Shown here: in pieces, positions 26,241 to 50,738 of the stretch
How positions within the stretch are numbered: the stretch's first letter is position 1
Layout: every line of letters starts with the position of its first letter
Assembly: GCA_964609895.1 (NCBI GenBank)
Contig: CAZSTG010000003.1
Location: forward strand, 7,574-71,573
Direction: 5' to 3'
DNA: 64,000 nt
Source: an uncultured Gammaproteobacteria bacterium
GTDB taxonomy: Bacteria; Patescibacteriota; Microgenomatia; UBA10105; UBA927
The notes under the pieces: generated by a model
The model's database searches: none
Told to the model about the DNA's origin: nothing
The model's input: only the letters and a program-made list of their open reading frames with translations
Translations under genes and position numbers: made by a program

Positions 26241-26636
26241 ATGAAACTATTCCTTGGGGAATATAACCATACATTAGACGAACGGGGCAGAGTAACGCTA
26301 CCAAAAAAGGTGCGAAGTGAGTTAGGGGAGAGGGAATTCGTATTAACACGGGGGTTTGATACATGTATTTTTGGCTATGACATGGCGGCGTGGGAGAAGG
26401 AAGCGGCAAAGCAGCTGGAAACATCAGTTACAACAGAAGAGGGAAGAGCACTGAGACGGTACGTGTTTTCGGCAGCGGAGAAGGTTGAAACGGATAAGCT
26501 TGGACGGGTTATATTGCCTACCCACCTCAAGGAATATGCTCGGGTTGGGACAGAGGTAAAAGTGATCGGTGCCGGTGATCACTTTGAGATCTGGGACAGC
26601 AAACAATGGGCTGAATTCGTGAAGGGAAAGAAATAA
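26241..26636 (+). CDS. mraZ: transcriptional regulator MraZ
   Basis: Two SpoVT/AbrB-like halves (GRVTLPKKVR... and GRVILPTHLKEY...). First gene of the dcw operon. TTGACA at 26177 upstream. Confidence 0.85.
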   Translation: MKLFLGEYNHTLDERGRVTLPKKVRSELGEREFVLTRGFDTCIFGYDMAAWEKEAAKQLETSVTTEEGRALRRYVFSAAEKVETDKLGRVILPTHLKEYARVGTEVKVIGAGDHFEIWDSKQWAEFVKGKK

Positions 26637-26638
26637 CC

Positions 26639-27496
26639 ATGAGCACCTATCATACGCCGGTATTGTTGAACGAGGTTCTGGAAGGACTTGATGTTGAGAC
26701 TGGAAAACGCTATATAGACGCGACATTGGGAGGCGGAGGACATACACGGGCAATGCTAGAAAAAGGGGCGACTATACTTGCACTGGATGAAGATACAGAT
26801 GCAATAGAAGAGAATAAGAAGCTGATATGTCCACGACTCCGGATTGTGCAAGGGAATTTCCGAAATATCGAAACAATTGCCAAACAGGAAGGGTTTATAC
26901 AGGTAGACGGAATATTGTTTGATTTGGGAGTTTCCAGTCATCAAATCAACTCTCCCGAGCGGGGGTTTACCTTCAGATCTGACGAAGCGCCCTTGGATAT
27001 GCGCTTCAATATTAAAAACTTAAAAAGTGCGAGGGAACTCATTGCAACAGCACATGAGGATGAATTGTATGAAATATTTGCGAAATATGGTGAAGAAGAG
27101 CGTGCTCGGGCAATTGCTGTTCATCTTATCCGCGCCCGTCAGATAAGTCCGATAACGACGGCGGGGCAGCTGCGGAAGGTGATAGAAGAAGTAGTAGGCA
27201 CAGGAAAAGCGAGCACTGGAAGCATTGCGCGAATATTTCAGGCAATTCGGATTGTCGTGAATGACGAGTTGCAGGCGTTGGAGGAAGGAATCGCCGGAGC
27301 AATGCATCTTGTCCGAAGAGGAGGGAGAATAGCGGTTATAAGCTTTCATTCTCTCGAGGACAGGATTGTCAAACGGGCATTTCGGAAATCAGGATACAAA
27401 GAAATTACAAAAAAGCCGGTTATGGCAACGGAAGACGAGGAAACAGAGAATCCTCGGTCACGAAGCGCAAAGCTTCGGGTTGTCGAAAAACCGTAA
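26639..27496 (+). CDS. rsmH: 16S rRNA (cytosine1402-N4)-methyltransferase RsmH
   Basis: HTPVLLNEVLEGL, DATLGGGGHT and DLGVSSHQI motifs. Confidence 0.9.
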   Translation: MSTYHTPVLLNEVLEGLDVETGKRYIDATLGGGGHTRAMLEKGATILALDEDTDAIEENKKLICPRLRIVQGNFRNIETIAKQEGFIQVDGILFDLGVSSHQINSPERGFTFRSDEAPLDMRFNIKNLKSARELIATAHEDELYEIFAKYGEEERARAIAVHLIRARQISPITTAGQLRKVIEEVVGTGKASTGSIARIFQAIRIVVNDELQALEEGIAGAMHLVRRGGRIAVISFHSLEDRIVKRAFRKSGYKEITKKPVMATEDEETENPRSRSAKLRVVEKP

Positions 27497-27504
27497 AAAA
27501 CAGT

Positions 27505-27798
27505 ATGAACACAATTACAAAAATAACCATTCCAACCGCTCTATTGTTTGTTCTTCTGTTGACAGCACAGATCATGTATTCCTGTCAGCTCGTCGGAGAC
27601 GGGAAGGAAATCAAAGAAATTGACCAGCAGATCGACCAGATGCGGCAGCAGGTATTACTTTCGGAAGAACAGGTAGCTTCGGCATCTTCATTGACAACAA
27701 TTCGGGAAAAAGCTACGGCGATGGGATTTTCATCCGCCTCCAAAGTTGTCACCATGAACTCCGACAATCTTGTTGTAGCCTTCGGACAAAGCAGATAA
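27505..27798 (+). CDS. ftsL: cell division protein FtsL-like (single TM plus coiled coil)
   Basis: 97 aa, TM helix then heptad-like EIDQQIDQMRQQVLLSEEQ. Position between rsmH and ftsI. Confidence 0.5.
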   Translation: MNTITKITIPTALLFVLLLTAQIMYSCQLVGDGKEIKEIDQQIDQMRQQVLLSEEQVASASSLTTIREKATAMGFSSASKVVTMNSDNLVVAFGQSR

Positions 27799-27818
27799 AA
27801 TAACCATAAGTACTACGT

Positions 27819-29495
27819 ATGTGGCGTATCTGGTCCATTTTTTCAGTATTTTTGTTCTGTTTCCTTCTTATAATAGGCCGGTTATTCTATTGGCAGGTCA
27901 TTTCCAGTACACGGCTCAAGGCGGAAGCTGCATCTCAGCACTTTCTTGAACTGTCGCTTCCAGCTGAACGTGGGACTATAAAAACGGCTGACGGATATGC
28001 GCTTGTCATGAATAAGGCTGCCTATCTGGTGTATGCGGAACCGAAAAATATTACGAATCTGCCCATATATTTCAAAACAGTCGGTCAAATACTGGGTATA
28101 CCCGAGGCGACGATATCGGCGATGGTGACACAGCCGAACCGCGTGTGGATACCAATCGCCCATAAAATAGACAATGACAAAGTGCAGCAACTGAAAGAGC
28201 TTGTTATCGGTGGAATAGGATTTGAAAAGGAACCGAAACGGTATTATCCGGAAGCGTCCATGGCTGCCAATCTGTTGGGATTTGTGGGACAGGATCAGAA
28301 TGGCAATGACAAAGGATATTTTGGTCTTGAAGGATATTATAACCGAGAACTGCAGGGAAAAACCGGCAGCATGACCATTGAAAAAGATGTGTCAGGCGCT
28401 CCGATTCTTATCGGAGAAAGTCTGCGTGTGGAACCTGCAAACGGGAGTACACTCCATTTATGGGTGGATCGGACAATCCAGAATATTGCAGAAACCAGAT
28501 TAAAGCAGGGTATTGAAAAATACGGGGCAAAAGAAGGATCTGTCGTCATCATGAATCCGAAAACCGGCGGAATTTTAGCAATGGCATCGTATCCGTCCTA
28601 TGATCCGTCCGCATACGCCGACTATGACAGAGAACTGTATAAGAATCCGATTGTCGCGTCCACGTATGAACCGGGATCCACATTCAAGGCTCTGGTACTT
28701 GCCGCGGCTATTGATGCAGGAGTGATACAAGCAGACACCATATTCGATGAGTCAGGCCCTGTGGAAGTCAGCGGGTATACCATCCGCACATGGAACAATG
28801 AGTATCACGGGCCGATCACCATGACAAAAGTACTGGAACATTCCTCTAATGTCGGTATGGTGTTCGCGGAAAAAAAGCTGGGGAAGGAGAAATTCATCAA
28901 GTTTATCAATGACGTCGGGTTCGGAACACTGACACATGTGGATCTGGAAGATGAAACAAGTCCGGAATTACGGGATGACGACGACTGGAAGGAAATCGAT
29001 CTTGCCACTGCATCATTCGGTCAGGGTATCGCAGTAACGCCGCTCCAGATGGTGCGTGCGACGGCGGCCATTGCAAACGACGGCTGGCTTATGGAACCGC
29101 ATATGGTAAAAACTATTGAGTCGGAGGGTGGGAAAAAGACGGAAATCAAACCAAAACGAGTTCGTCAGATATTCAGTGCAGCAACCGCTGAGATTGTTTC
29201 CGAGATGATGGTGTCAGCTGTCGACAACGGGGAGGCGAAATGGGCAAAGCCAAAAGGATACAGGATTGCCGGAAAAACAGGGACGGCGCAGATTCCTGTA
29301 GCAGGCCATTATGACGACAAAAAAACAATTGCCTCTTTTGTCGGTTTTGCGCCGGCTGACGATCCGAAATTCGTTATGCTTGTGACGCTTCGTGAGCCAT
29401 CGTCTTCCCAGTGGGGTTCTGAAACAGCCGCTCCCTTGTTTTTTAACATCGCCAAGGACATATTTTTATATATGGGCATTCCGGCGGAGCAATAA
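27819..29495 (+). CDS. ftsI: peptidoglycan D,D-transpeptidase (class B PBP, FtsI/PBP2 type)
   Basis: N-terminal TM. STYEPGSTFK (SxxK), SSN and KTGTA motifs. Confidence 0.85.
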   Translation: MWRIWSIFSVFLFCFLLIIGRLFYWQVISSTRLKAEAASQHFLELSLPAERGTIKTADGYALVMNKAAYLVYAEPKNITNLPIYFKTVGQILGIPEATISAMVTQPNRVWIPIAHKIDNDKVQQLKELVIGGIGFEKEPKRYYPEASMAANLLGFVGQDQNGNDKGYFGLEGYYNRELQGKTGSMTIEKDVSGAPILIGESLRVEPANGSTLHLWVDRTIQNIAETRLKQGIEKYGAKEGSVVIMNPKTGGILAMASYPSYDPSAYADYDRELYKNPIVASTYEPGSTFKALVLAAAIDAGVIQADTIFDESGPVEVSGYTIRTWNNEYHGPITMTKVLEHSSNVGMVFAEKKLGKEKFIKFINDVGFGTLTHVDLEDETSPELRDDDDWKEIDLATASFGQGIAVTPLQMVRATAAIANDGWLMEPHMVKTIESEGGKKTEIKPKRVRQIFSAATAEIVSEMMVSAVDNGEAKWAKPKGYRIAGKTGTAQIPVAGHYDDKKTIASFVGFAPADDPKFVMLVTLREPSSSQWGSETAAPLFFNIAKDIFLYMGIPAEQ

Positions 29496-29638
29496 TACAG
29501 TGATGGAGTAGCGTGTTTGTTTGGTGAATCACTGATGCTAGAAAATTGTCATACGAGAAAAATACTATAAGCTTCATTTAGCTTCAGTTTGATCATATAC
29601 ATAGCCGTGCGTGTCGTTCTTTTGATATAATAGAGTCC

Positions 29639-30808
29639 ATGATTTCTTGGCTAAAGAGCCTCTACCATTGGGTTGTTGCAGTAGCTGCACTAGTATACTT
29701 CAGGTTTCCTGCACGCCATCTTACAGTCATAGGCGTGACCGGTACAGACGGGAAAACCACTACCTCGACGCTTATCTATGAGATTCTGAAGGCCGCCGGA
29801 TACAAAACGTCGGTTATTACCACGGTACACGCAGTTATTGCAGGGAAATCCTATGATACCGGTTTTCATGTCACAACACCAAACGCTTTCTATGTGCAAA
29901 AATACCTGCGGGAAGCGGTCGATCACGGTGATACGCATGTTGTTTTGGAGACAACTTCTCATGCGCTTGCACAGTCACGCGTGCTAGGGATTCATTTTGC
30001 AGTTGGAGTACTCACCAATGTGACGCATGAACATCTGGATTGGCACAAAACATACGACCGGTATCTGATGGCAAAAATGAAACTGTTGTTTGCGTCCGAT
30101 ACAGCGGTTATCAATAAAGATGAGGGAGAACTGTATGCGCGTATTTCCCCGCTTCTTAGACGTCATAAACTTGTAACGTACGGACTCAGACGTCAGGCAA
30201 CCATAACGCCTGAAACACATCCGTTTGAAACTGCACTCCTCGGTGATTTTAATCAATATAATTGTCTGGCAGCAATTGCCGCGACAGGTCTGGTTGGTGT
30301 GTCAAAAGATGTGATAAAAAGGACAATCAAAGGATTTACCGGAATTCCCGGAAGAATGGAAATTATTTCGGTAAAACCGTGCCGCGTAATTGTTGATTTT
30401 GCCCATACGCCAAACGCGATTGATAAGGCGCTCAAAACCGCGCGGGATATGACGAAGGGCAGGCTCATTCATGTGTTTGGGAGCGCAGGACTCAGGGATC
30501 GGACGAAGCGTCCGTATATGGGGAAATTTTCCGCCCAGTATGCAGACAGCATTGTGTTGACGGAAGAAGACTTTCGAACAGAAAATGTGGAAACTATCAT
30601 GGATGAAATTGCTTCAGGCATCCCTATATATAAAGATGTGCACCGATTTGCTCGTCGTGAAGACGCGATTAAGTTTGCGTTGTCTGATGTAAAAAAAGAT
30701 GATACCGTCATCATCACAGGCAAAGGGCATGAAAAGAGTCTCTGTCGCGGCAACACGGAATATCCGTGGAGTGATCAGGAAGCAGTGAAAAAACTTTTGA
30801 AAAAGTGA
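29639..30808 (+). CDS. murE: Mur ligase, MurE-like, lacking the N-terminal UDP-binding domain
   Basis: P-loop GVTGTDGKTTT at residue 33. TSHALAQSRV, TNVTHEHLDWH, DFAHTPNAI and C-terminal IITGKGHE match MurE. Only 20 aa precede the P-loop, and the 143-nt upstream gap cannot encode domain 1. Confidence 0.65.
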   Translation: MISWLKSLYHWVVAVAALVYFRFPARHLTVIGVTGTDGKTTTSTLIYEILKAAGYKTSVITTVHAVIAGKSYDTGFHVTTPNAFYVQKYLREAVDHGDTHVVLETTSHALAQSRVLGIHFAVGVLTNVTHEHLDWHKTYDRYLMAKMKLLFASDTAVINKDEGELYARISPLLRRHKLVTYGLRRQATITPETHPFETALLGDFNQYNCLAAIAATGLVGVSKDVIKRTIKGFTGIPGRMEIISVKPCRVIVDFAHTPNAIDKALKTARDMTKGRLIHVFGSAGLRDRTKRPYMGKFSAQYADSIVLTEEDFRTENVETIMDEIASGIPIYKDVHRFARREDAIKFALSDVKKDDTVIITGKGHEKSLCRGNTEYPWSDQEAVKKLLKK

Positions 30809-30818: not shown

Positions 30819-31559
30819 ATGGTACATAAGACCAATCAGGGACTGTATCAGTCCTCAATAGTGAAAAATATACCGGGAGTCATTCATGGATTCACGTCAA
30901 AAACACACGGCTCCATGTTGATTGCGGAAAATCAAAGAAAGCTGTTTCTTTCGCTCGGCATACCGCCCGAATCGGTGATTTCCGCACGTCAGGTTCACGG
31001 CAACGCCGTTCACGTTGTGCATCCACAGGATGCAGGTGGCAGATTGGAAGATGTTGACGGCATCGTGTATAAAAAAACGGACGTACGGCAACAGCACCCT
31101 TTGCTCACCGTTCATGTCGGTGACTGCGTACCGATGCTGTTTATTGATTCGGTTGCGGGTATCATCGGAGTTGCCCATGCGGGTTGGAGGGGAACAAAAG
31201 ACCATATTGCGCGCACTGTGCTTAGCGAATTCGTCAGGAACGGTTCGGATCCTTCGCATATTCAGGTGGTGTTCGGCCCGTTTATTCATGCATGCTGTTA
31301 CAAGGTTGATGAAGAGCGTGCACTGGTATTTGAACGGGAATTTCCCGGAAGCCGCGGTGTCGTAAACCGCTTGGGTGTATCATGGTTTATAGATCTAGGA
31401 ATTGCGAACATACTGGATTTGAAGCAGGGCGGCGTATTGGAAAAAAATATCGAAAATAATGAACAGTTGTGCACTTATAATAATCCGCTTGAATTTTTTT
31501 CGTTCAGAAGGACGACTGAACCGTTTGGCGAAATACTAGGGTTCATCGGATACATATAA
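30819..31559 (+). CDS. pgeF: peptidoglycan editing factor PgeF / YfiH (DUF152, Cu-oxidase_4 fold)
   Basis: Motifs VHGNAVHVV and HAGWRGT are family-diagnostic. Confidence 0.8.
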   Translation: MVHKTNQGLYQSSIVKNIPGVIHGFTSKTHGSMLIAENQRKLFLSLGIPPESVISARQVHGNAVHVVHPQDAGGRLEDVDGIVYKKTDVRQQHPLLTVHVGDCVPMLFIDSVAGIIGVAHAGWRGTKDHIARTVLSEFVRNGSDPSHIQVVFGPFIHACCYKVDEERALVFEREFPGSRGVVNRLGVSWFIDLGIANILDLKQGGVLEKNIENNEQLCTYNNPLEFFSFRRTTEPFGEILGFIGYI

Positions 31560-31560
31560 T

Positions 31561-32970
31561 ATGGAAGCAAAGGATATACAGAGAATTCACTTTGTCGGTA
31601 TTGCCGGTGTGGCGATGACAGCACTTGCCGTGTATGCAAAAGAGCGCGGTATTGCGGTGACAGGATCTGATGTGAACGGCATATTTCCGACACATGCGAT
31701 GCTTAAAAATGCGGGTATTACCGTACAGGAAGGATTTTCGTCCGGACACATTTCCAAAACAGCCAATCTGGTTGTGTTTACAGGGGCACACCAAGGGAAA
31801 GACAATGTGGAGGTACAAACCGCATGCAAACTGCAGATTCCGGTGATGTCCCATGGTGAGGCGCTTGGATTTTTTATGAAGGGGGCTGAGCAGATTTCTG
31901 TTGCAGGAAGTCACGGAAAAACGACAACAAGCGCAATGATTGCAACAATTCTTCATGTTGCAGGACGGGACCCCTCCTATGCAATCGGCTGTGGTGACAT
32001 ACGGGGCATCGGCGCATCCGGTCATTACGGAACAGGTAATATGTTTGTAGCGGAGGCGGACGAATACAGTACCGATCCGCATCATGATCCAAAACCGCGT
32101 TTTCTTTGGCAGCATCCGGATATTTTGGTTGTGACGAATATCGACTTTGATCATCCAGACGCATATGCATCACTTGCCGATGTGAAAGCGGCCTTCGTGT
32201 CGCTTGTTGCCCAACAACAGGGAAAACAAATAACGATTCTAAATGCGGATGATCCGGAGAGTGCCGCAATCACAAACGCCAAACATACGCTCCTGTACGG
32301 TTTTTCTCCCCGCGCGAACGCCCGCATTACGCATGTGGGATACGGAGAAGAACAAACATTTTTTACTCTTTCCATGGATGGAACAGATGTCGGTGAATTT
32401 GTACTGCATGTTCCGGGACGGCACAATGTGCTCAATGCTGTTGCAGCGGCAGTTGGCGCACTTTCTGCGGGCGTGTCTTGGGAGGAAATAAAAAAAGGAC
32501 TTGCGGCATTTCAGGGTACAAAGAGAAGATTTGAAAAAATTGGCGAAGCAAACGGCATGGTGGTATATGACGACTACGCACATCATCCAAAGGAAATTCA
32601 AGCATCTCTGGAGGCGGCGCGCGATTGGTTTCCTGAAAGAAAAATTATCACTGTGTTTCAGCCACATACCTATTCAAGAACCAAGGCATTGCTTGAGGAT
32701 TTTGCCAAGAGTTTTCAAAATAGCGATGTCGTGTTGTTGACAGATATTTTTGCATCAGCGAGAGAGCAGGATACGTTAGGGATAACAACGGCAACACTGG
32801 TTGAGAAGGCCGCTCAGTACCACAGGAATATCCAGTATACAAAGGGTAAGAAAGAGACGCTGACTTATTTGCAGAACATTGCGAGTTCAGGTGATGTAAT
32901 CATCATTATGGGTGCGGGAGATATTTATGAATGGGGCCCAGATATTGTACGGGCAATCAAAACAATATAA
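31561..32970 (+). CDS. murC: UDP-N-acetylmuramate--L-alanine ligase
   Basis: IHFVGIAGVAMTALA N-terminus, GSHGKTTT P-loop and DDYAHHP motif. Confidence 0.85.
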   Translation: MEAKDIQRIHFVGIAGVAMTALAVYAKERGIAVTGSDVNGIFPTHAMLKNAGITVQEGFSSGHISKTANLVVFTGAHQGKDNVEVQTACKLQIPVMSHGEALGFFMKGAEQISVAGSHGKTTTSAMIATILHVAGRDPSYAIGCGDIRGIGASGHYGTGNMFVAEADEYSTDPHHDPKPRFLWQHPDILVVTNIDFDHPDAYASLADVKAAFVSLVAQQQGKQITILNADDPESAAITNAKHTLLYGFSPRANARITHVGYGEEQTFFTLSMDGTDVGEFVLHVPGRHNVLNAVAAAVGALSAGVSWEEIKKGLAAFQGTKRRFEKIGEANGMVVYDDYAHHPKEIQASLEAARDWFPERKIITVFQPHTYSRTKALLEDFAKSFQNSDVVLLTDIFASAREQDTLGITTATLVEKAAQYHRNIQYTKGKKETLTYLQNIASSGDVIIIMGAGDIYEWGPDIVRAIKTI

Positions 32971-32973: not shown

Positions 32974-33954
32974 ATGACGGACGCCTATAGACAATTCATC
33001 GAAACAATACATATGCCGGTCAAAGAACGGGAACCGCTTGCGCCGTACAGCACGTATAAAGTGGGAGGTCCTGCAGACCTGTTTGTGGAAGCCCGCGTGA
33101 AAGAAGACATCGTGCAGGCGGTAGAAACGGCAAGAAAATGCGGTGTAGCGTTTTTTATTTTAGGTGGCGGTTCAAATATTTTAATCGGTGATAAGGGATT
33201 TCGGGGAATTGTCATCAGAAATTTGACGAAGAACATAACAGTGCGCGGCATGAAGGGCGCAATAACCAAAGGTGTTGCTGACGGAAGTGTATACGTGGAA
33301 GCGGAATCAGGTGTCGCCCTGAACGCGCTTGTCAGATATACCATTGAAGAAGGGCTCGCGGGTCTCGAAATGCATCTCGGGCTCCCGGGTTCCGTGGGAG
33401 GAGCGGTGTTCATGAATTCCAAATGGATGAAACCCCCGTCGTTTATCGGTGACGCGGTATATCAGGCAACCATTCTGACGCCAGAAGGAGAAATCAAAAG
33501 CGTAACCAAAGAGTATTTCCGTTTTTCTTACGGATCTTCCGTCATCCAAAAAACAGGCGACATCGTGTTATCCGTCCTGTTTGCCCTCAAACGGGCGGAG
33601 AAAGAAGCGCTGTGGAAAACGGCAAACGAAAGCATGGAATACCGGAGAGCGTCGCAACCGCAGGGAGTAAAAACAGCAGGATGCGTGTTCAAAAACATAT
33701 CCTTGATGGAAGCGGTTACCGCAGGTACGCCGAATCATACGACTTCAACGGGTTATCTGATTGACAAATCAGGATGCAAAAACCTGACGATCGGGGGCTC
33801 AGCCGTATCGCAGGTTCATGCAAATTTTATCGTCAACACGGGCTCGGCGACTGCGAGTGATATGGTACAATTAATTGAAACAATAAAAGAAAAAGTGCAA
33901 GAGAAATTCGGTATAACACTTGTTGAAGAAATTCAGCGGATAGGAGAATTTTAA
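32974..33954 (+). CDS. murB: UDP-N-acetylenolpyruvoylglucosamine reductase
   Basis: PLAPYSTYKVGGPADLF FAD-binding N-terminus; MurB-like throughout. Confidence 0.85.
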   Translation: MTDAYRQFIETIHMPVKEREPLAPYSTYKVGGPADLFVEARVKEDIVQAVETARKCGVAFFILGGGSNILIGDKGFRGIVIRNLTKNITVRGMKGAITKGVADGSVYVEAESGVALNALVRYTIEEGLAGLEMHLGLPGSVGGAVFMNSKWMKPPSFIGDAVYQATILTPEGEIKSVTKEYFRFSYGSSVIQKTGDIVLSVLFALKRAEKEALWKTANESMEYRRASQPQGVKTAGCVFKNISLMEAVTAGTPNHTTSTGYLIDKSGCKNLTIGGSAVSQVHANFIVNTGSATASDMVQLIETIKEKVQEKFGITLVEEIQRIGEF

Positions 33955-42087: not shown

Positions 42088-43131
42088 ATGGTTTTTTTAC
42101 TCGGCGCATTATTATTTTCTTGGATAGTCAGCAGCAGCTTGTATATTCCGTTTATCAAACTGCTCTATAACTTTCGGATGCAACGCATGAAGCAGGTGAC
42201 GCTTGATGCATTTAATAAACGGACGCCGATATTCGACAAGTTCCATCAGATAAAAGCAGGAACTCCTGTTGGCGGTGGCGTGCTCATTATCCTTGTCACC
42301 ACCATTCTTTTTCCGCTTGCGCTCGTGCTGATGAAATATTTTTGGGTGCCGATCACTTCTGTATATCCGATGGCTGCGGAAATAAAGATATTATTGTTTA
42401 CCTTTATCTCTTTTGGATTATTAGGGCTTCTTGACGACATGAAAAAAACGTTTGTTCTGAAGTCTGATTTTTTCGGACTAAGGCTGCGCCATAAACTGAT
42501 TCTTGAAATTATCATTGCAGCGGTCATCAGCTTTTGGCTGGTTACGGATCTGCACATCAATATTTTTTATCTCCCGCTGTTTGGTGTTATTCACATGGGG
42601 TGGTGGTTTATTCCGTTTTCCATGTTTACCATAATCGCGTTTGCGAATGCATTTAATATTACGGACGGACTGGACGGATTGGCATCCGGTGTGCTGATGA
42701 TCGCACTTTTTGCTTTTTGGATTGTGAGCGCGTCCATTCTCGATACGCCGCTTTCCGTATTTCTGGCACTCTGGATTGGTAGTTTGTTGGCGTTTTTATA
42801 TTTCAACGTCTATCCGGCGCGTATTTTTTTGGGTGACGTCGGCGCACTGTCATTTGGTGCGACGTTTGCTGTGGTGGGACTGATTCTCGGTAAAGCTCCC
42901 GCACTGATCATCATCGGCTTTGTGTTTGTCATCGAAGTCGCCTCGTCGCTCATTCAGCTCCTGTCCAAAAAATTTTTCCACAAAAAAGCATTTCCCGCCG
43001 CGCCGTTTCATCTGTTTTTGCAGTATGCGGGATGGGCTGAACCAAAGATTGTCATGCGTTTCTGGATTCTTTCGATTGTCTTTGCTGTGTTCGGACTCTT
43101 CTTTGCTTTTTTGACAAAGAATCCGATATAA
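42088..43131 (+). CDS. mraY: phospho-N-acetylmuramoyl-pentapeptide transferase
   Basis: Start at Met 13, 3 nt after the dgkA stop. NAFNITDGLDGLASG and GDVGALSFG motifs. Confidence 0.9.
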   Translation: MVFLLGALLFSWIVSSSLYIPFIKLLYNFRMQRMKQVTLDAFNKRTPIFDKFHQIKAGTPVGGGVLIILVTTILFPLALVLMKYFWVPITSVYPMAAEIKILLFTFISFGLLGLLDDMKKTFVLKSDFFGLRLRHKLILEIIIAAVISFWLVTDLHINIFYLPLFGVIHMGWWFIPFSMFTIIAFANAFNITDGLDGLASGVLMIALFAFWIVSASILDTPLSVFLALWIGSLLAFLYFNVYPARIFLGDVGALSFGATFAVVGLILGKAPALIIIGFVFVIEVASSLIQLLSKKFFHKKAFPAAPFHLFLQYAGWAEPKIVMRFWILSIVFAVFGLFFAFLTKNPI

Positions 43132-43147: not shown

Positions 43148-43939
43148 ATGGATACGCGTCCAATAGGAATCATAGATTCTGGTTCGGGAGGTTTATCGTT
43201 ATGGAGTGCTGTTGCAACGCTTCTTCCCGACGAATCCATTGTCTACCTTGGAGATCATGCAAACGCGCCATACAGTGACAAGACAAGGCGTTTTATACAG
43301 GCGCGGGTAAAAAAACTAATCCGTTCTCTGGTACGGCAAAATTGTAAACTCTGCATTATCGCATGTAATACTGCAACAGTTGCAGGTATAGATTGGTATC
43401 GAAAGCAGTTTCCCACACTTCCCATCGTTGGTGTTGTGCCCGTAATAAAAACCGCGGCACAGGCAACAAAGACGAATACCATATGCATACTGTCGACGGA
43501 ATTTACGGCAAAAAGTAGATATGTAAAAAAACTGATTGCAAAATTTGCACCGACAGCATCCGTCTTTTCCCTTGGCAGTTCCAAACTGGTTTCGTACATT
43601 GAATCGGAAAAACAAGACAGAGGGAAGATTGAAAAAGAGCTCTGCCGTATGTGCAGCTCGGTTGCGGAGAAACCCGTCGACGTCGTCGTTCTCGGGTGTA
43701 CCCATTTTCCGTTCATCAGAAACGAAGTGGCGAGGCAGTTCGGCAGATCCGTTCTCATTCTTGATTCCGCTGGTGCTGTTGCGAGACAGACAGAAAGAAT
43801 TATTCGTACAAACGGTATCGCGTCGTCGAGTGCTCCCGTATATGCATTTTTTACGACCGGCAATGCCAAACGTGTATCGTATGTCATGTCACGGCTTTTG
43901 GGGCGTGATATAGTTGTCGAACATACGGCAATCTCTTAG
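43148..43939 (+). CDS. murI: glutamate racemase
   Basis: IGIIDSGSGGLS, IACNTA and LGCTHFP motifs. Confidence 0.85.
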   Translation: MDTRPIGIIDSGSGGLSLWSAVATLLPDESIVYLGDHANAPYSDKTRRFIQARVKKLIRSLVRQNCKLCIIACNTATVAGIDWYRKQFPTLPIVGVVPVIKTAAQATKTNTICILSTEFTAKSRYVKKLIAKFAPTASVFSLGSSKLVSYIESEKQDRGKIEKELCRMCSSVAEKPVDVVVLGCTHFPFIRNEVARQFGRSVLILDSAGAVARQTERIIRTNGIASSSAPVYAFFTTGNAKRVSYVMSRLLGRDIVVEHTAIS

Positions 43940-43948: not shown

Positions 43949-45334
43949 ATGACGACATTTAAAGGGAAAACGGTCGCAATAACAGGTATTTCCATTGAGG
44001 GAAAAGATGCGCTGGATTTTTTTCTGAAGGAAGGATGCAAGATTATCTGCTGTGACAGGCGTTCCGAAGAGCAATTGGCCGAAACAATTGCTTTATATAC
44101 AGATTCGCCCGTGACATGGTGCTTCGGTTCATCGTATCTGTCCCGTCTTCACGAGGCGGATCTAATTGTTAAAACGCCGGGGATGTCACTTTTGACTCCG
44201 GAGCTGGTACAGGCAAAAAATCGCGGTATTGAAATCACGAGTGTGACCAAATTGTTTTTTGAACTGTGTACCGCCCCCATTATCGGTGTGACCGGAACCA
44301 AAGGAAAGGGAACGACAAGCTCCTTGATACGGGATATGCTGGAAACAGCAGGAAAGACGGTATTCCTAGGGGGTAATGTAGGAATTGCCTTGTTATCGCG
44401 CGTCAGATCCATACGTCAGACAGACTGGGTGGTATATGAACTGTCCTCATTTCAGCTAGAAGATATGAATTTGAGTCCCCACATCGCGGTTGTACTTCGG
44501 ATTACGCAGGATCATTTGGCAAATTTTGACGCAAACGCGACCAATTTTCATGCAACACGGGAACTGTATGTGGAGGCAAAATCGCAGATTGTGCGTCACC
44601 AGACGGCAGACGATATCGCCGTCATCAATGGAGGGGACATGACAGCGCGGGCATTTGCAGAATTGACGCCCGCAAAAAAGCTGTATTTTGACCGTTACGG
44701 GACGACCGCTGATTGTTATGTAGAATCGCATACCGTACACCTAGTTGAACAGGACGCTGTAACGGAAATTGCAGACGCATCAACAGTACAAGTTCGTGGA
44801 GATCATAATCTGGAAAACATCGCCGCGGCAACGCTTGCGTGCCGTGCCGCAGGTGTCTCTGTTTCGGCAATACAACAGGCTGTCCGTGCATTTAAGGGAT
44901 TGGAACACCGGCTGGAATTTGTCCGGACTGTGCATGAAGTTTCCTATTATAATGATTCGTTTTCAACCGTTCCGGAAACAACCATTGCCGCAGTCGAAGC
45001 ATTTGAAGAACCGAAGGTGTTGATTCTGGGAGGATCGGAGAAAAAATCAGATTTTACCGTCATGGGCGAATACATTGCAAAAAGCAACGTCAGGGGTGTT
45101 GTCGTTATCGGTGACATGACGACACGCATCGAAGAAGCGTTAAGAGCTGCTCATTTTAAGGGAAAAATTGTCACAGGATGCACTAACATGCAGGAAATCG
45201 TTATACAGGCAACCAAGTTGTCAAAGCCGGGAAGTGTGGTGGTATTGACCCCCGGTTGTGCGTCGTTTGGAATGTTTGTTAATTATAAAGATCGCGGAAA
45301 GCAGTTTAAACATGAAGTTCTTGCATTGGCATAA
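43949..45334 (+). CDS. murD: UDP-N-acetylmuramoylalanine--D-glutamate ligase
   Basis: KTVAITGISIEGKDA N-terminus; GVTGTKGKGTTSSL P-loop. Confidence 0.85.
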   Translation: MTTFKGKTVAITGISIEGKDALDFFLKEGCKIICCDRRSEEQLAETIALYTDSPVTWCFGSSYLSRLHEADLIVKTPGMSLLTPELVQAKNRGIEITSVTKLFFELCTAPIIGVTGTKGKGTTSSLIRDMLETAGKTVFLGGNVGIALLSRVRSIRQTDWVVYELSSFQLEDMNLSPHIAVVLRITQDHLANFDANATNFHATRELYVEAKSQIVRHQTADDIAVINGGDMTARAFAELTPAKKLYFDRYGTTADCYVESHTVHLVEQDAVTEIADASTVQVRGDHNLENIAAATLACRAAGVSVSAIQQAVRAFKGLEHRLEFVRTVHEVSYYNDSFSTVPETTIAAVEAFEEPKVLILGGSEKKSDFTVMGEYIAKSNVRGVVVIGDMTTRIEEALRAAHFKGKIVTGCTNMQEIVIQATKLSKPGSVVVLTPGCASFGMFVNYKDRGKQFKHEVLALA

Positions 45335-46415
45335 ATCAACACTCGGCCCTCCGGATTACCTGTTGATAGGATTGGTAGTTCTCTTGTCAGGATTCGGACT
45401 TTTGATGGTATACGATGCCTCTGTTGCCATCGCCATCAGGGATTTCAACAACCAGTATTACTATCTGACGGAACAACTGAAATGGGTTATCCTTGGACTG
45501 ATCGTTTTTACCGTCGCTTCATTTGTGGACTACCGGATATACAGGAAATTCGCCCTTCCGATGCTTGTCGGCACACTTTTTCTGCTGCTTGTTGTGTTTT
45601 TGCCCGGCGTCGGTATAAAAGCACTTGGCGCTAAACGGTGGATCAATCTGGGATTTACTGTGTTACAGCCTGCCGAATTGGCAAAGCTTACCCTTATTAT
45701 ATATTTGTCCGCGTGGTTTGCGGTGAAAGAAAAAGGGAGACTCATTTCATTTCTGCTGCTGTTGGGGATGATTGCAGGGCTTATTATTTTGGAGCCGGAC
45801 TTAGGGACAACATTAGTGATTCTTGCAACAGCAATGACGATGTATTTTTTTTCTGGTGCGCCCGTCAGACAATTTGCTTTAGTGGTACCGGTGCTTATTG
45901 TATGCATCATCGGACTTGCCGTCTCTTCTCCATATAGATTTCGGCGGCTGACAACGTTTTTTAATCCTGAAAACGATCCACTCGGTGCGTCGTATCATAT
46001 CAGGCAGGCAACCATAGCGCTCGGTTCGGGCGGTATGTTCGGTGTTGGTCTCGGTAAATCACGGCAAAAGTATGAATACCTGCCCGAGGCAAATACGGAT
46101 TCCATTTTTGCCATCATTGGAGAGGAAATAGGATTTGTCGGTGCAGTCGGATTGCTTGTTGTGTTTTTTATACTTATCTGGAGAGGATTTCAAATTGCCC
46201 GTCGCGTTGAAGATCCGTTCGGCAGATATCTTGCACTCGGCATTACCACTTGGATTGCGTATCAGGTGATCATGAATATTGCAGCAATGGTTGCGCTTAT
46301 CCCTCTTACCGGCGTTCCATTGCCTTTGATTTCATACGGAGGGTCTAGTCTCATTGTTGTTCTAACAGGACTTGGTATACTGGTTAATATAAGTAAATTC
46401 AGAACTCATGGCTGA
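45312..46415 (+). CDS. ftsW: SEDS-family peptidoglycan glycosyltransferase FtsW/RodA
   Basis: Start at Met 19 of ORF 45258 (overlaps the murD end by 23 nt). PDYLLIGLVVLLSGFGLLMVYDAS N-terminus. Ten TM helices. Confidence 0.8.
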   Translation: MKFLHWHKSTLGPPDYLLIGLVVLLSGFGLLMVYDASVAIAIRDFNNQYYYLTEQLKWVILGLIVFTVASFVDYRIYRKFALPMLVGTLFLLLVVFLPGVGIKALGAKRWINLGFTVLQPAELAKLTLIIYLSAWFAVKEKGRLISFLLLLGMIAGLIILEPDLGTTLVILATAMTMYFFSGAPVRQFALVVPVLIVCIIGLAVSSPYRFRRLTTFFNPENDPLGASYHIRQATIALGSGGMFGVGLGKSRQKYEYLPEANTDSIFAIIGEEIGFVGAVGLLVVFFILIWRGFQIARRVEDPFGRYLALGITTWIAYQVIMNIAAMVALIPLTGVPLPLISYGGSSLIVVLTGLGILVNISKFRTHG

Positions 46416-47517
46416 ACTGCATACAGGAAAGAAAGTCTGCGTGACAGGGGGACATTTGTCTCCTGCTGTTGCCGTGATTGAGGAAATACTGGCAAGCGGA
46501 AAACCGTGGACTGTTGTGTTTGCGGGCAGGGCAAAAACATCCCGATCAAGTGTCTTTGCATCGGAAGAAAAACAGTGTATTGAGCAATTGCATATCCCAT
46601 TTTTTCCGCTGCATGCAGGCAGGTTATCCAGAACGTTTTCTTGGGATGCACTGTACGATGCGTTGACTATTCCCGTCGGTTTTGTCGAGGCAATCGTGTT
46701 CTGTCTGCGGGAAAAGCCGGATTGCATTCTTTCTTTTGGGGGATATGTGGGGTTGCCCGTTGTGATTGCCGGTTGGCTGTTTGGCATTCCCACTGTCATT
46801 CATGAACAAACACACAGACTCGGACTTGCCAATGCGATTGCTTCCGAATTTGCACAGAATATCCTGCTTACGTTTCCCGATGCGCGAAAACAACAGGATA
46901 AACGGGTTCGCGTAACGGGGTTGCCGCTTCGGAAATCATTTTTTTCCGCTCCGGCACATGCATCGTTTCCCATCCCCGCAAAAAAACCTGTGTTGTATAT
47001 TACGGGCGGCACAACCGGCGCAGTGTCGATGAATGATTTGCTTTTTCCGTGCATCGGTTCGCTGGTGCACGACTATACAGTGATTCATCAGACCGGTCAG
47101 CAGTCATATGCAAAAGCACTTACTGTGCTTGACACGCTGCCCAAAGACGATAAACCATTGTATATACCGACGCCATATGTGGAAAGCGGCGACGTATCTT
47201 GGATCATGCATCACGCGCGGCTTGTCATCGGAAGATCGGGAGCCAATACTGTCGCAGAAGTTGCCGCACTCAACAAATCCGCCGTATTTATTCCGCTGCC
47301 GTGGGCAGGGTCGCAAGAACAACTCCGGAATGCAACGTGGTATGCCGCCGCCAGCGGCAACGTGCATATTGTTAATCAGCAGCGCACGACATCCGATCAG
47401 TTGTGCGAAATCATCCGCGCTGCTGCATCGCATGCGGATACAACAAGCGATACACAACACCATGCAGTTCCTGCCGCAGCACGGGCAATCGTTGATACAC
47501 TTGCCTTATTGATGTAA
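46408..47517 (+). CDS. murG: undecaprenyldiphospho-muramoylpentapeptide beta-N-acetylglucosaminyltransferase
   Basis: VCVTGGHLSPAVAV N-terminus, ITGGTTGAV C-terminal domain motif. Position between ftsW and ftsQ. Confidence 0.75.
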   Translation: MAELHTGKKVCVTGGHLSPAVAVIEEILASGKPWTVVFAGRAKTSRSSVFASEEKQCIEQLHIPFFPLHAGRLSRTFSWDALYDALTIPVGFVEAIVFCLREKPDCILSFGGYVGLPVVIAGWLFGIPTVIHEQTHRLGLANAIASEFAQNILLTFPDARKQQDKRVRVTGLPLRKSFFSAPAHASFPIPAKKPVLYITGGTTGAVSMNDLLFPCIGSLVHDYTVIHQTGQQSYAKALTVLDTLPKDDKPLYIPTPYVESGDVSWIMHHARLVIGRSGANTVAEVAALNKSAVFIPLPWAGSQEQLRNATWYAAASGNVHIVNQQRTTSDQLCEIIRAAASHADTTSDTQHHAVPAAARAIVDTLALLM

Positions 47518-47524
47518 CCATTTC

Positions 47525-48217
47525 ATGAATCCAAGAAACGTATCAGGAAAACGGAAAATCGTCAGTGCAGTTGCCGCAGTTTGTATTTTTGCAATTGTTG
47601 TCGGAAGTATATATCTGCTACTTCGGCTGTTTCAGATAAAAAATATTATCGTTTCCGGAGATCCTGCAAAGGTGGAAGTAAATGCAAAACAGTTTGTCGG
47701 GAACATGATTTTTTTCCAGCCGGATGCGGTGATTGCACAGATTAAAACCGATAATCCACTTGTCAAAACAATCAGGATACGAAAACATTTTCCGTCGACA
47801 TTGGAACTGGTTGTCTACAAACGACAACCGATTGCCAGACTGCATACACAGACGGCAATTGTCGGCATTGACAGCGATGCGGTAGTGACTGATGTGTTGG
47901 GAAATGATTCGATTCCTGTTATTCAGATTGATGTGCCGCTTGTGAGAATGGGACAGCGCATGAAAGATGAAGGAGTGAAACAGGCGGTCGGAATTATCGC
48001 GGGGACGCAGGATTTTCTGCATATTCGAAAAATACAAAATTATGAAACAGCGTCACTGCGTGCCCAAACGCAGGAATCAGACATTTTTTTTCCTCAAAAA
48101 GGGGATATTCGCCCAATACTGGATACTTTACAAACGTTGATGACGGGGTTTAGAATAAAAGGTACCATGCCCAAAACGATTGATCTTCGTTTTGATAAAC
48201 CTGTTGTTCAATTTTAA
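47525..48217 (+). CDS. ftsQ: cell division protein FtsQ/DivIB (POTRA)
   Basis: N-terminal TM, POTRA-like IKNIIVSG...P block. Precedes ftsA. Confidence 0.6.
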   Translation: MNPRNVSGKRKIVSAVAAVCIFAIVVGSIYLLLRLFQIKNIIVSGDPAKVEVNAKQFVGNMIFFQPDAVIAQIKTDNPLVKTIRIRKHFPSTLELVVYKRQPIARLHTQTAIVGIDSDAVVTDVLGNDSIPVIQIDVPLVRMGQRMKDEGVKQAVGIIAGTQDFLHIRKIQNYETASLRAQTQESDIFFPQKGDIRPILDTLQTLMTGFRIKGTMPKTIDLRFDKPVVQF

Positions 48218-48219
48218 TT

Positions 48220-49524
48220 ATGGCACGCGACAGAATTTTAACCGGAATTGATATCGGGACCTCCAAAATTACCACGCTGATTGCAAGCATTTCAGAAGAA
48301 CAGGATGTACGCGTTGTCGGCGTAGCAACAGTAGCAAGCCGCGGTCTTCGCAAAGGACAGATTGTGAATATTGAGGAAGCAACTGGCGCAATTTCCCAGT
48401 CACTTGATGCGGCGGAGCGGATGGCAGGTGTTTCCGTTCCAGCGGCTTTTATTCTTACAGGTGGCAATCATATTGCATCACTTAACTCTCATGGCGTTGT
48501 TGCCGTTGCCGAACCGGATAAGGAAATCTCCGGAAATGATGTGGCGCGCGTCATCGATGCGGCAAAAGCCATTTCCCTTCCGTCATCCCGTGAGATTCTG
48601 CATATCATTCCGCGCGGCTATCTGGTGGACGGGCAGGAAGGAATTGTTGATCCCGTAAATATGACGGGTGTACGGTTGGAAGTAGACACACATCTTATTA
48701 CCGGAGGTTCTATTGCAATCCGCAATTTATATAAGTGTGTTGAGGATCTGGGAGTGGAAGTGGAGGGAATTGTATTTGGCGGACTTGCATCTGCATCCGC
48801 AACACTTTCTGATACAGAAAAAGAATTGGGGGTGGTGCTCGTCGACATAGGTGGCGGAACAACGGATGTTGCGGTGTATGTGGACGGAGCACTTTCCTAT
48901 TCGTCGGTGATTCCGGTCGGTGCAATTAACATAACAAAAGATTTGGCGGCGGGGCTTCGTATTTCTTTGGAAAGCGCGGAAAAAATCAAACTCGCGCTTG
49001 GAGTGCAGCCGAAAGTGCCGGTTCTGCCGGAGACGGAAGAACAGCCTGCAGGAAAAACAAAGACGGATAAATCGGATGAACTGGATGTTTCCGATCTGCA
49101 GTTGATTGAGGATATGAAAACTGTTTCACGGAAAACGCTGGTGGAGGGTATTGTAAAACCGCGGCTGAACGAAATATTTTCTTTGGTGGGGCTGGAAATC
49201 AAGAAAAGCGGATTCGGCGGTATGACGCCGTCCGGCGTTGTACTTACAGGTGGCGGTGCATTAACCGTCGGGGCAGTTGAATGCGCGAGAAGAAATCTGG
49301 CAATGCCGGTGCATGTGGGAACGCCAAAAAATATTTCCGGCCTTATTGAGGAAATCCAGACGCCCGCATATGCGGCAAGTGTCGGATTATTATTGTACGG
49401 AGTAAAATCGGAAAAAAGTGACAATGGTCCTTTGTTTAAGGGATTGGGAAAACTTGGCGACAAGATCCCAATGAAAGGTGTTGCAGGGAAGCTTATAAAT
49501 CTGATAAAGTCATTTCTGCCATAA
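48220..49524 (+). CDS. ftsA: cell division protein FtsA
   Basis: ILTGIDIGTSKI actin-fold phosphate-1 and DIGGGTTD phosphate-2 motifs. Confidence 0.85.
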   Translation: MARDRILTGIDIGTSKITTLIASISEEQDVRVVGVATVASRGLRKGQIVNIEEATGAISQSLDAAERMAGVSVPAAFILTGGNHIASLNSHGVVAVAEPDKEISGNDVARVIDAAKAISLPSSREILHIIPRGYLVDGQEGIVDPVNMTGVRLEVDTHLITGGSIAIRNLYKCVEDLGVEVEGIVFGGLASASATLSDTEKELGVVLVDIGGGTTDVAVYVDGALSYSSVIPVGAINITKDLAAGLRISLESAEKIKLALGVQPKVPVLPETEEQPAGKTKTDKSDELDVSDLQLIEDMKTVSRKTLVEGIVKPRLNEIFSLVGLEIKKSGFGGMTPSGVVLTGGGALTVGAVECARRNLAMPVHVGTPKNISGLIEEIQTPAYAASVGLLLYGVKSEKSDNGPLFKGLGKLGDKIPMKGVAGKLINLIKSFLP

Positions 49525-49568
49525 AAAAACACTCTCTTCAGTATCTGCCTCTGAGGAAATGATACGTT

Positions 49569-50738
49569 ATGCTGATTAAACCGGAGATTGCGAGATTTGC
49601 AAAAATAAAAGTTGTCGGCATTGGAGGCGGAGGAAGCAATGCAGTCAATTCCATGATTTCGGCCGGCACGATCAAGGGGGTTGATTTTATCGCCGTCAAC
49701 ACGGACGCGCAGGCACTGCTGACTAATCTGGCACAGACAAAAATTCAAATAGGCGACAATGTGACACGGGGTTTAGGTGCAGGCGGCAATCCCGAAATCG
49801 GCAGACAGGCGGCGGAAGAATCAAGGGAAAAAATCAAGGAATATCTGCGCGACTGCGACATGGTATTTATTACGTGCGGTGAGGGTGGAGGAACAGGAAC
49901 GGGAGCGGCACCGATATTTGCGGAAATCGCCAAGGAACAGGGTGCACTTACTGTTGCTGTTGTGACAAAACCATTTCGGTTTGAAGGAACGAGACGCATG
50001 GTGTCTGCTGAAGAAGGCATCATGAATCTGAAAGACAAAGTCGACACACTCATCGTTATTCCCAATCAACGACTGCTGGAAGTAATCGATAAAAAACTGA
50101 CATTGCTTGAGGCATTCCGCGTTGCCGATTCTGTGCTCAGTCAGGGCGTACAGGGAATATCTGATCTGATCACTATGCCGGGACTCATTAACGTGGATTT
50201 TGCGGATGTCAGGTCTATTATGACGAATGCGGGATCGGCGCTTATGGGGATAGGAACCGGCGTCGGAGAAAACAGGGCGGCGACAGCTGCAAGAACAGCG
50301 GTTGCTTCTCCACTTTTGGAAATGTCCGTTGAGGGGGCAAAAGGTGTGCTCTTTAATATTACCGGAGGAACTGATTTGACGATGGCGGAGGTTGATGAGG
50401 CTGCAAAACAGATTGCAGGTGCGGTAGATCCGGATGCAAATATTATTTTTGGTGCAACCATTGATGAAAATCTGGTCGATCAGGTAAAAATATCCGTGAT
50501 AGCAACGGGTTTTGATGAAACCAAGAAACGGCTTCGGGAAATGTCGGCCGCACGGGGCGCGACACAGACGGGTTTCGGGCAGGGGTACACACCGCGTCCG
50601 ATGCAGCCGGTACAACAGGTGCAGCCTGTTTCCCAGCAGCCGTCGCAGGCGTCGTCACCCGTGTTTACTCCGCCGAACGATGTTCCTCCGGAGGATGATG
50701 AATTTGAAATCCCCGCATTCCTACGGCAGAGGAATTAG
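49569..50738 (+). CDS. ftsZ: cell division GTPase FtsZ
   Basis: [15 protein letters not shown], tubulin signature [10 protein letters not shown] and NVDFAD motifs. C-terminal conserved peptide [13 protein letters not shown]. Confidence 0.95.
50707..50738. repeat. attL-like direct repeat at the ftsZ 3' end (AAATCCCCGCATTCCTACGGCAGAGGAATTAG)
   Basis: 27/32 nt identical to 56366-56397. Both copies translate to IPAFLRQRN-stop in the ftsZ frame, and the mismatches are synonymous. Confidence 0.6.

Follow-up and report, generated by a model that had tools for sequence, protein, structure and literature searches.

Does the long array of cell wall and division genes on contig CAZSTG010000003.1 (GenBank assembly GCA_964609895.1) represent one exceptionally large operon, as a first annotation made from the sequence alone suggested (the original prediction), and is it a peculiarity of this genome? 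We analyzed the array, which runs from mraZ to ftsZ (26241-50738, + strand), within a stretch of 64,000 nucleotides of the contig that is called the window in the following. The array is a genuine and correctly annotated 24-gene division and cell-wall (dcw) cluster, and its layout is a lineage-wide trait, standard for the lineage and no peculiarity of the source genome. It is quite probably a vertically inherited dcw cluster in the form typical for Microgenomates of the candidate phyla radiation (CPR), with Candidatus Gottesmanbacteria as closest named relatives, which would be co-expressed from promoters at mraZ and murE.

Gene content and packing of the cluster

The region contains 24 intact + strand open reading frames (ORFs). 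Gene families were assigned by Pfam and NCBIfam profile scans, and together with the ORF list these bear out the gene order given in the original prediction. Five start codons were refined by gene calls on identical or related contigs and by ribosome-binding sites (glmU 35308, degT 38820, dgkA 41720, mraY 42088, ftsW 45312). The genes are as follows:

26241..26636, +, mraZ (PF02381, 110 bits)
26639..27496, +, rsmH (mraW) (PF01795, 297 bits)
27505..27798, +, ftsL-like, 97 aa (one hydrophobic segment, then a Gln/Glu-rich coiled-coil-like stretch)
27819..29495, +, ftsI, class B penicillin-binding protein (PBP_dimer and Transpeptidase domains)
29639..30808, +, murE, short form, 389 aa (TIGR01085, 383.6 bits, cutoff 257.3)
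30819..31559, +, pgeF, YfiH/DUF152 family (PF02578, 165 bits; TIGR00726, 133.5 bits, cutoff 141)
31561..32970, +, murC, all three domains (Pfam)
32974..33954, +, murB (Pfam)
33956..35293, +, murA (PF00275, 288 bits)
35308..36615, +, glmU-like, archaeal-type bifunctional sugar-1-phosphate nucleotidylyltransferase/acetyltransferase (NTP_transferase and Hexapep)
36612..37343, +, abh, alpha/beta hydrolase (GHSFGG nucleophile motif in the translation)
37340..38812, +, murF, 490 aa (TIGR01143, 224 bits, cutoff 288.6)
38820..40049, +, degT-like, divergent DegT/DnrJ/EryC1-family pyridoxal phosphate (PLP) enzyme (PF01041, 183 bits)
40046..40696, +, MBL-fold hydrolase, glyoxalase-II/YcbL-like (profile and structure-sequence matches)
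40693..41703, +, femX-like, FemAB family, 336 aa (PF02388, 115 bits, cutoff 24)
41720..42085, +, dgkA-family lipid kinase (PF01219, 104 bits)
42088..43131, +, mraY (Pfam)
43148..43939, +, murI, glutamate racemase (TIGR00067, 190 bits)
43949..45334, +, murD, N-terminal domain present (TIGR01087, 358 bits)
45312..46415, +, ftsW (23-nt overlap with murD; the overlap is identical in the related locus L003)
46408..47517, +, murG (Pfam)
47525..48217, +, ftsQ-like, POTRA domain (PF08478 POTRA_1, 27.8 bits, cutoff 23)
48220..49524, +, ftsA (Pfam)
49569..50738, +, ftsZ (Pfam)

Clear family matches were obtained for MraZ, RsmH, FtsI, MurE, PgeF, MurC, MurB, MurA, MurF and MraY as well as for MurI, MurD, FtsW, MurG, FtsA and FtsZ. 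The other cluster proteins include an alpha/beta hydrolase (Abh), a DegT-family PLP enzyme, an MBL-fold hydrolase, a FemAB-family protein and a DgkA-family kinase. The FtsL-like protein has no Pfam match; it was assigned by its size, its position and a weak match to NF053549 (E 1.6e-5, below the cutoff), and a homologue between rsmH and ftsI is also present in relatives. The FtsQ-like protein matches the NCBIfam model NF004039 with an E-value of 9e-6, far below the cutoff. With a GlmU-like enzyme, MurA to MurF, MurI, MraY, MurG, FtsW/FtsI and the divisome genes packed closely in the same direction, nearly the whole cytoplasmic peptidoglycan pathway is indeed encoded here, as had been claimed. 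The absence of ddl, alr and a flippase gene was also confirmed, since no family match to Ddl, Alr or a MurJ-type flippase was found among the ORFs of the window (all ORFs of at least 150 aa and one shorter ORF).

From mraZ to ftsZ the junctions measure 2, 8, 20, 143, 10, 1, 3, 1, 14, -4, -4, 7, -4, -4, 16, 2, 16, 9, -23, -8, 7, 2 and 44 nt, with abh overlapping both the glmU-like gene and murF by 4 nt. All junctions thus lie between -23 and +20 nt except for those of ftsI with murE (143 nt) and of ftsA with ftsZ (44 nt), and the coding fraction of the cluster is 0.99. The tight packing described originally therefore stands, but some gaps are longer than the 0-13 nt given (14-20 nt). The one longer gap that was thought able to hold a promoter does contain a predicted one (see below), but the 44 nt in front of ftsZ form a second, modest gap. 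Neither an Rfam element (gathering thresholds) nor a tRNA (ARAGORN) was detected in the whole window.

The + strand carries nearly every gene between 7.6 and 59.6 kb (7649-59582, ~52 kb), and the GC skew is positive throughout. Extreme strand asymmetry is known from a complete Microgenomates genome (PMC7143001). Owing to this window-wide strand bias, the co-directionality of the cluster says little by itself.

The gene order is conserved throughout the lineage

The closest named homologues of the window MurF are found in Candidatus Gottesmanbacteria (46-50% identity), and by its MurF homologues the window comes from an ultrasmall bacterium of the CPR/Patescibacteria. A genome with a 68% identical MurF has the same 24-gene order throughout. 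Relatives were collected by a scan of one genome per GTDB species, resulting in 64 loci (designated L and a number), which were mapped by blastp against the window proteins. Nearly all loci have the order ftsI-murE-pgeF-murC-murB-murA-glmU-abh-murF-degT-(MBL)-femX-dgkA-mraY-(murI)-(murD)-ftsW-murG-ftsQ-ftsA-ftsZ. This order is common to more than 60 species-level Gottesmanbacteria/Microgenomates assemblies, to the Levyibacteriota locus L059 to the Paceibacterota locus L064 and to L062; in the last three, MurF is only 31-34% identical to the window protein and the order is essentially kept. As a control, a deltaproteobacterial locus from the same scan (L068) showed the canonical dcw order. Junction lengths are kept in the relatives as well: the medians of most junctions fall between -4 and +5 nt, and somewhat longer gaps are found repeatedly in front of dgkA (median 54 nt) and ftsZ (median 61 nt).

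The synteny comparison proposed as a check thus returned the same order in more than 60 independent assemblies. The cluster had been called unusually complete, which is true only in comparison to model bacteria and is the norm for this lineage. The non-canonical inserts pointed out originally are present, but they are not random, as their positions are conserved out to the lowest of the MurF identities above.

In about 25 species loci (e.g. L011, L024 and L032) murD is absent from the cluster and mraY adjoins ftsW with a median gap of 15 nt; in these species murD must be located elsewhere in the genome or have been lost. Dozens of third party annotation (TPA) metagenome-assembled genomes (L005-L067) carry the CPR-type cluster under the title "uncultured Gammaproteobacteria bacterium". 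Because the gene content is of the CPR type, these record titles are wrong placeholder labels and unfit for taxonomy.

Supply and accessory genes

Several genes of the cluster can be connected to the supply and editing of peptidoglycan precursors. The GlmU-like protein contains both the nucleotidyltransferase domain and the left-handed beta-helix (hexapeptide) acetyltransferase domain; its scores of 226 bits for TIGR03992 (cutoff 292) and 92 bits for TIGR01173 (cutoff 367) are both below the cutoffs. The start of its gene was set at an ATG preceded by a GGAGG Shine-Dalgarno sequence, and in L059 it is adjoined by glmS. MurI would supply D-Glu. The DgkA family includes undecaprenol kinases; dgkA is located 2 nt upstream of mraY, and its product is probably an undecaprenol kinase. 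PgeF edits position 1 of the stem peptide, and pgeF adjoins murC.

In about seven loci without murI, the slot between mraY and murD is occupied by a gene for a MurL-like UDP-MurNAc-L-Ala-L-Glu epimerase (NF041275, 366 bits; e.g. L015:16231-17586, L019:16108-17544 and L036:16195-17616) with a GAGKDS PP-loop-like motif. In comparison to the Xanthomonas MurD2-MurL route, the score of the relatives' proteins lies below the Xanthomonadales-specific cutoff of 700, and the window itself has murI. The lineage thus seems to use either of two routes to D-Glu, by murI or by a murL-like gene.

FemAB-family enzymes are tRNA-dependent and branch peptidoglycan. The best match of the FemX-like protein among solved structures is Staphylococcus aureus FemX (6SNR), relative to which about 90 residues are missing between two aligned blocks. 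Its length of 336 aa falls well short of the 420-426 aa of S. aureus FemX/FemA, and it presumably resembles the short FemX of Weissella viridescens; it reaches 43 bits with the FemX equivalog NF047883 (cutoff 500). The DegT-like protein has kept the Schiff-base lysine (FSFGRDKCIS compared to FSFFGNKIIT of the perosamine synthetase 3BN1). Its divergent C-terminal half contains about 50 inserted aa, and NCBIfam equivalogs match with approximately 100-133 bits against cutoffs of 375-650, so that no subfamily can be assigned. For Abh and the MBL protein only generic matches were found, both in NCBIfam and among solved structures. Nothing was found in the searchable literature on dcw clusters of CPR that contain DegT/FemAB genes; as evidence of novelty this is weak.

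Two independent assemblies of one sublineage (L004 and L114, MurF 53% and 51% identical) lack abh, degT and femX and have kept the MBL gene that is otherwise located between degT and femX; in about ten further loci the MBL gene alone is missing. Since abh, degT and femX are lost together although they flank murF and the MBL gene, they are likely to form one functional accessory module, and the pattern suggests that this module is dispensable for the core pathway. The module is unlikely to be an essential substitute for Ddl: L004 and L114 are without all three genes and also without ddl, and yet have the remaining cluster.

This joint loss from both sides of murF and the MBL gene bears on the question whether abh, degT, the MBL gene and femX are neutral hitch-hikers without any role in the cell wall. 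Such an origin would fit the generic families of Abh and the MBL protein, the absence of the MBL gene from some loci and the survival of the remaining cluster in L004 and L114, and also the different extra genes that other relatives carry at the same spots. We nevertheless regard it as rather unlikely: the order abh-murF-degT-(MBL)-femX-dgkA is kept out to Levyibacteriota and Paceibacterota, the accessory genes are joined by 4-nt overlaps, the catalytic lysine of DegT is retained, and the FemAB family is known for peptidoglycan branching.

The extra genes of the relatives are found at the degT/MBL/femX junctions. They encode a fusion of CvpA (Colicin_V) and a CAP domain of about 322 aa, present in the cluster of about 18 loci (e.g. 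L011:12716-13684), and a 112-aa PF04020 "holin-family" protein with four transmembrane (TM) segments in about 15 loci (e.g. L015:13352-13690); a reverse transcriptase is among the extras too. The recurrent gene of about 322 aa was considered as a candidate for ddl and rejected, as it encodes this CvpA-CAP fusion. Likewise, an extra gene of about 450 aa is not a flippase gene but encodes the MurL-like protein.

Promoters and transcription units

The sequence signals for transcription initiation and termination at and within the cluster are:

26074..26103, both directions, strong intrinsic-terminator hairpin (13-bp stem, T-runs on both sides)
26165..26233, +, putative Pmra promoter/operator (GTGAAA 26165-26170; -35 TTGACA 26177-26182; 17-nt spacer; -10 GAATAT 26200-26205)
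29623..29631, +, predicted extended -10 element TGATATAAT (PmurE) at the end of the 143-nt gap, 7 nt before the murE ATG
50788..50817, +, AU-rich hairpin followed by a T-rich tract, candidate 3' terminator (fold z = -1.36, not significant)
50821-50849, +, promoter-like TTGATT-17-TAGTAT for the next gene (sequence match)

The bidirectional terminator lies between an upstream gene of 152 aa and the cluster and forms the 5' boundary of the latter. In the block upstream of mraZ, four TGG boxes (TGGGT/TGGAT/TGGGG/TGGTA) span 26195-26229 with an exact period of 10 nt. A single instance of the fourfold TGG-N7 pattern is present in the 64-kb window, and none of 100 shuffles contains it. About 75 nt of this block are near-invariant in approximately 20 metagenome relatives (MraZ 62-95% identical) while the sequence further upstream is unrelated, and more distant relatives also have GTGG repeats with 10-nt spacing. 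We take the block as a promoter with a putative operator for MraZ. The mraZ gene has no obvious Shine-Dalgarno sequence. Located at 26225-26233, 7 nt before the mraZ ATG, is TGGTAAACT (TGGTAATAT in most relatives, at 6-7 nt), which overlaps the last MraZ box and is a candidate for a second, leaderless -10 element.

Of 47 relatives, 41 have a perfect TATAAT at 5-9 nt upstream of the murE start, and every other cluster gene shows 0-3 such cases. The consensus of the PmurE element in relatives is TGGTATAAT, and in 39 of 45 it stands 6-7 nt away from the start codon. PmurE is of the extended -10 type and shows no conserved -35 region, and the 24 nt upstream of it show random-level identity among relatives (0.29). 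Conservation of TATAAT amid unconserved intergenic sequence is hard to explain unless the element is functional. It indicates that PmurE is a conserved leaderless internal promoter with the transcript start at or next to the murE ATG. Only one other ORF of the window has a perfect TATAAT 5-9 nt before its start, the mannose-1-phosphate guanylyltransferase-like gene at 19550 (19529-19552), which is a candidate for a further leaderless gene.

Other explanations of the 143-nt gap did not hold. Rfam and ARAGORN report no RNA element or tRNA in it, and its RNA is less structured than shuffled controls (z = +1.56). A relic of the missing N-terminal domain of MurE (see below) is ruled out as well, as the gap is too short and has stops in all three frames and the short MurE is lineage-wide.

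One could divide the array into several independent units (mraZ to ftsI, murE and the genes following it, ftsZ) that stand head to tail only because of the strand bias of the genome. The bias itself, the conserved promoter at murE and the larger conserved gaps at three junctions are in line with such a division, but no terminator-like structure is present at any internal junction, and overlaps of 4 nt or junctions of 1-3 nt leave no room for terminators or promoters. Moreover, the order is kept at MurF identities of only 31-34%, which argues for selection on co-expression beyond strand bias. Taken together, a set of independent units is improbable.

The claim of a single unit, one 24-gene operon transcribed from a single promoter upstream of mraZ, has to be corrected as well. 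It would account for the strong terminator just upstream of mraZ, for the 21 junctions that overlap or measure at most 20 nt and for the unstructured ftsI-murE gap. Terminator-like hits within the cluster are at chance level, so that no internal terminator was detected and read-through from the mraZ promoter is likely; promoter-like hits there exceed chance slightly at most. However, the extended -10 element before murE with its TATAAT conserved in unconserved surroundings and the consistently larger gaps before dgkA and ftsZ in the relatives make a single promoter very doubtful. The array probably has at least two transcription start regions and is operon-like, being neither a single-promoter super-operon nor a series of insulated units.

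A model for the origin and expression of the cluster

In the model that we favor, the vertically inherited cluster would have kept the ancestral frame mraZ-rsmH-ftsL-ftsI-murE ... mraY-murD-ftsW-murG-ftsQ-ftsA-ftsZ, murC-murB-murA would have moved to between murE and murF, and supply and accessory genes would have been gathered into this frame. The GlmU-like enzyme is predicted to make UDP-GlcNAc, MurI to provide D-Glu and the DgkA-type kinase to provide undecaprenyl phosphate for MraY; PgeF would act in editing at the first stem-peptide position and the FemX-like transferase would add the peptide branch. Transcription would start from a sigma-70-type promoter upstream of mraZ that overlaps the four TGG boxes serving as MraZ operator. 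A second start, from the extended -10 promoter and on or beside the murE ATG, would produce a leaderless message covering murE to ftsZ and free of MraZ control, and transcripts from the mraZ promoter would read through in the absence of an internal terminator. The tiny gaps and 4-nt ATGA overlaps suggest that translation is coupled from gene to gene. Overall, a small genome with few regulators would in this way co-express the divisome and almost all of the cytoplasmic and membrane steps of the peptidoglycan pathway in stoichiometric amounts.

Several points weigh against this model. The assignments of FtsL and FtsQ are weak, the GlmU-like protein and MurF score under the NCBIfam cutoffs, and several roles follow from family membership alone; for Abh, DegT and the MBL protein no role is assigned by family. 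The relatives were found by a MurF-based search and are biased to genomes sharing this type of MurF. No ddl or alr was found in any of the 64 related loci, and a complete pathway depends on ddl and alr outside the examined loci. The candidate 3' terminator is weak, and the hairpin at 50788..50817 is not among the hits of the terminator scan. Finally, promoters, leaderless start and read-through are predictions from sequence and conservation.

A chimeric contig joining unrelated mur and fts fragments would be conceivable for a metagenome-assembled genome, but no positive evidence for such an assembly or binning artefact was found, parts of the cluster occur as exact copies in two separate sequencing runs, with the identical proteins in SRR8925774 and SRR8925805, GC content and skew run smoothly through the region, and the shared order in more than 60 independent assemblies from different projects rules out a misassembly, leaving this explanation with practically no probability.

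MurE lacks its first domain and MurF carries a putative membrane domain

Two of the Mur ligases have an atypical architecture, and the domain-1-less MurE and the MurF with its predicted TM domain are lineage-wide. MurE matches only positions 71-471 of the TIGR01085 profile and is missing Mur-ligase domain 1; its alignment begins at residue 89 of the Thermotoga maritima MurE (4BUB) and at about residue 91 of 1E8C. In the relatives the median length is 393 aa, compared to 389 aa in the window. The specificity motif reads EDFR instead of DNPR (meso-diaminopimelate) or D(D/N)P(N/A) (Lys), the Arg being kept and the rest divergent. A hydrophobic stretch at the MurE N-terminus was considered as a TM anchor and rejected; it aligns to the normal pre-P-loop helix of the Escherichia coli and T. 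maritima enzymes, and hydropathy gives no TM segment.

MurF has its best NCBIfam match with TIGR01143, of which positions 64-405 are matched and positions 1-63 are not, and its score is below the cutoff because the N-terminal domain is missing. The MurF-like part starts at approximately residue 131, contains the central ATPase and the C-terminal domains, and has MurF structures as top fold matches, with about 375 of 490 columns aligning to solved MurF structures. Domain 1 is replaced by residues 1-130 (window 37340-37735, residues 1-132), which are conserved across 16 homologues with an invariant loop KEYRxDRMxxH..T.QGK and are modelled as helices (AlphaFold2, pLDDT 89). Hydropathy and the positive-inside rule suggest three TM helices and a basic cytoplasmic loop. 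Searched alone, this region returned 31 representative clusters among 1.84 billion proteins, in all of which it stands at the N-terminus of a protein of about 490 aa or on a fragment. MurC and MurD have kept their N-terminal domains. The searchable literature contains no mention of a membrane-anchored MurF or of a domain-1-less MurE/MurF set, which again is weak evidence of novelty only.

The N-terminal domain could simply tether MurF to the membrane next to MraY. A different reading starts from MurT of the MurT/GatD lipid II amidotransferase (PMC3267633), a Mur-ligase homologue. MurT also lacks the N-terminal UDP-binding domain and provides a precedent for a domain-1-less Mur ligase on membrane-bound lipid II. 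In analogy, MurE and MurF might act at the membrane on a channelled or lipid-linked precursor, and the pentapeptide might be completed or decorated in a non-canonical way. This idea combines the MurE without domain 1, the TM domain of MurF, the normal MurC and MurD, the lack of ddl in the 64 loci and the abh/DegT/FemX module flanking murF. Unlike MurT, the window proteins score as true MurE and MurF (the MurT model NF052464 gives only 41 bits for MurE), MurF has a membrane domain of its own and no GatD partner is present. Beyond the domain architecture the lipid-linked reading is unsupported, and we regard it as a long shot.

Neighborhood of the cluster

Upstream of the cluster, a glycine-tRNA ligase is encoded at 24266-25582 (NF003211, 579 bits), separated from mraZ by the 152-aa gene and the terminator. 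Its proximity to a FemX-like gene, i.e. one resembling a lipid II:glycine glycyltransferase gene, may be coincidental. Further upstream, a surface-polysaccharide region (2668-23441) encodes two short-chain dehydrogenase/reductase (SDR) dehydratase/epimerases, about eight glycosyltransferases, a PMT_2-like membrane protein, a 995-aa protein without family match, a sugar-1-phosphate nucleotidyltransferase, a Bac_transf initiating transferase and a DUF4012 protein. A canonical DegT aminotransferase (5534-6640, - strand) and an FdtA/WxcM-like hexapeptide-repeat protein (6642-7634, - strand) are located there with dehydratase partners at 2.7-7.6 kb.

Directly after ftsZ, a Xer-like tyrosine recombinase is encoded at 50918-51940, followed by ORFs without family match up to 55371. 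The stretch 50918-55371 has a low GC content (33-35% compared to ~45%) and may be an integrated element or a variable island.

Significance and comparison with known systems

The cluster is a lineage-typical variant of the well-known dcw cluster and ordinary for its lineage. Of note are mainly the putative leaderless promoter, the unusual forms of MurE and MurF and the co-inherited module rather than the operon as such. A major CPR lineage keeps murA and murB in the dcw cluster like the inferred ancestor, but in a rearranged form and without ddl. It has also drawn precursor-supply and editing genes into the cluster and has a deeply conserved putative leaderless promoter at murE. The domain-1-less MurE, the apparently membrane-embedded MurF and the abh/degT/femX module are testable hints of a non-textbook precursor pathway or wall chemistry in CPR, and such differences could matter for organisms that cannot be cultured alone.

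In work attributed to Eraso et al. from 2014, the MraZ operator is said to consist of direct repeats (GTGGG/TGGGN) with 10-bp spacing in E. coli, Bacillus and mycoplasmas. The window likewise has TGG(G/A/T)N boxes at a 10-nt period, overlapping and downstream of TTGACA-17-GAATAT upstream of mraZ. It differs from the known system in having four boxes instead of three, and its last box is also the site of the candidate leaderless extended -10 element (TGGTAAnAT), at 6-7 nt ahead of the ATG.

The dcw cluster of E. coli has internal promoters, e.g. at ftsQ/ftsA/ftsZ. The element found here is likewise predicted to uncouple downstream genes from mraZ-proximal control, but it is located at murE, is of the extended -10 type without a conserved -35 region and predicts a leaderless mRNA.

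The dcw cluster's 17-gene "complete" version was found only in Halanaerobiales and is the maximum for non-CPR bacteria in an analysis that did not cover CPR (Leonard et al., PMC8871954). The dcw analysis of Megrian et al. 2022 did include CPR, as cited in PMC10221324. Compared to the canonical cluster (E. coli, 15 genes), the window has the same mraZ-rsmH-ftsL-ftsI-murE start and the same ftsQ-ftsA-ftsZ end, keeps mraY, murD, ftsW and murG in the same relative order and is likewise co-directional and tight; with the inferred ancestral 17-gene form it shares the location of murA and murB inside the cluster. The canonical internal order murE-murF-mraY-murD-ftsW-murG-murC-murB-ddl is not matched, as murC-murB-murA stand between murE and murF and not after murG, and ddl is missing. 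In contrast to the 15-17 genes of the known forms the window cluster comprises 24, eight of them extra (pgeF, glmU-like, abh, degT-like, MBL, femX-like, dgkA and murI), and its MurE and MurF are without domain 1.

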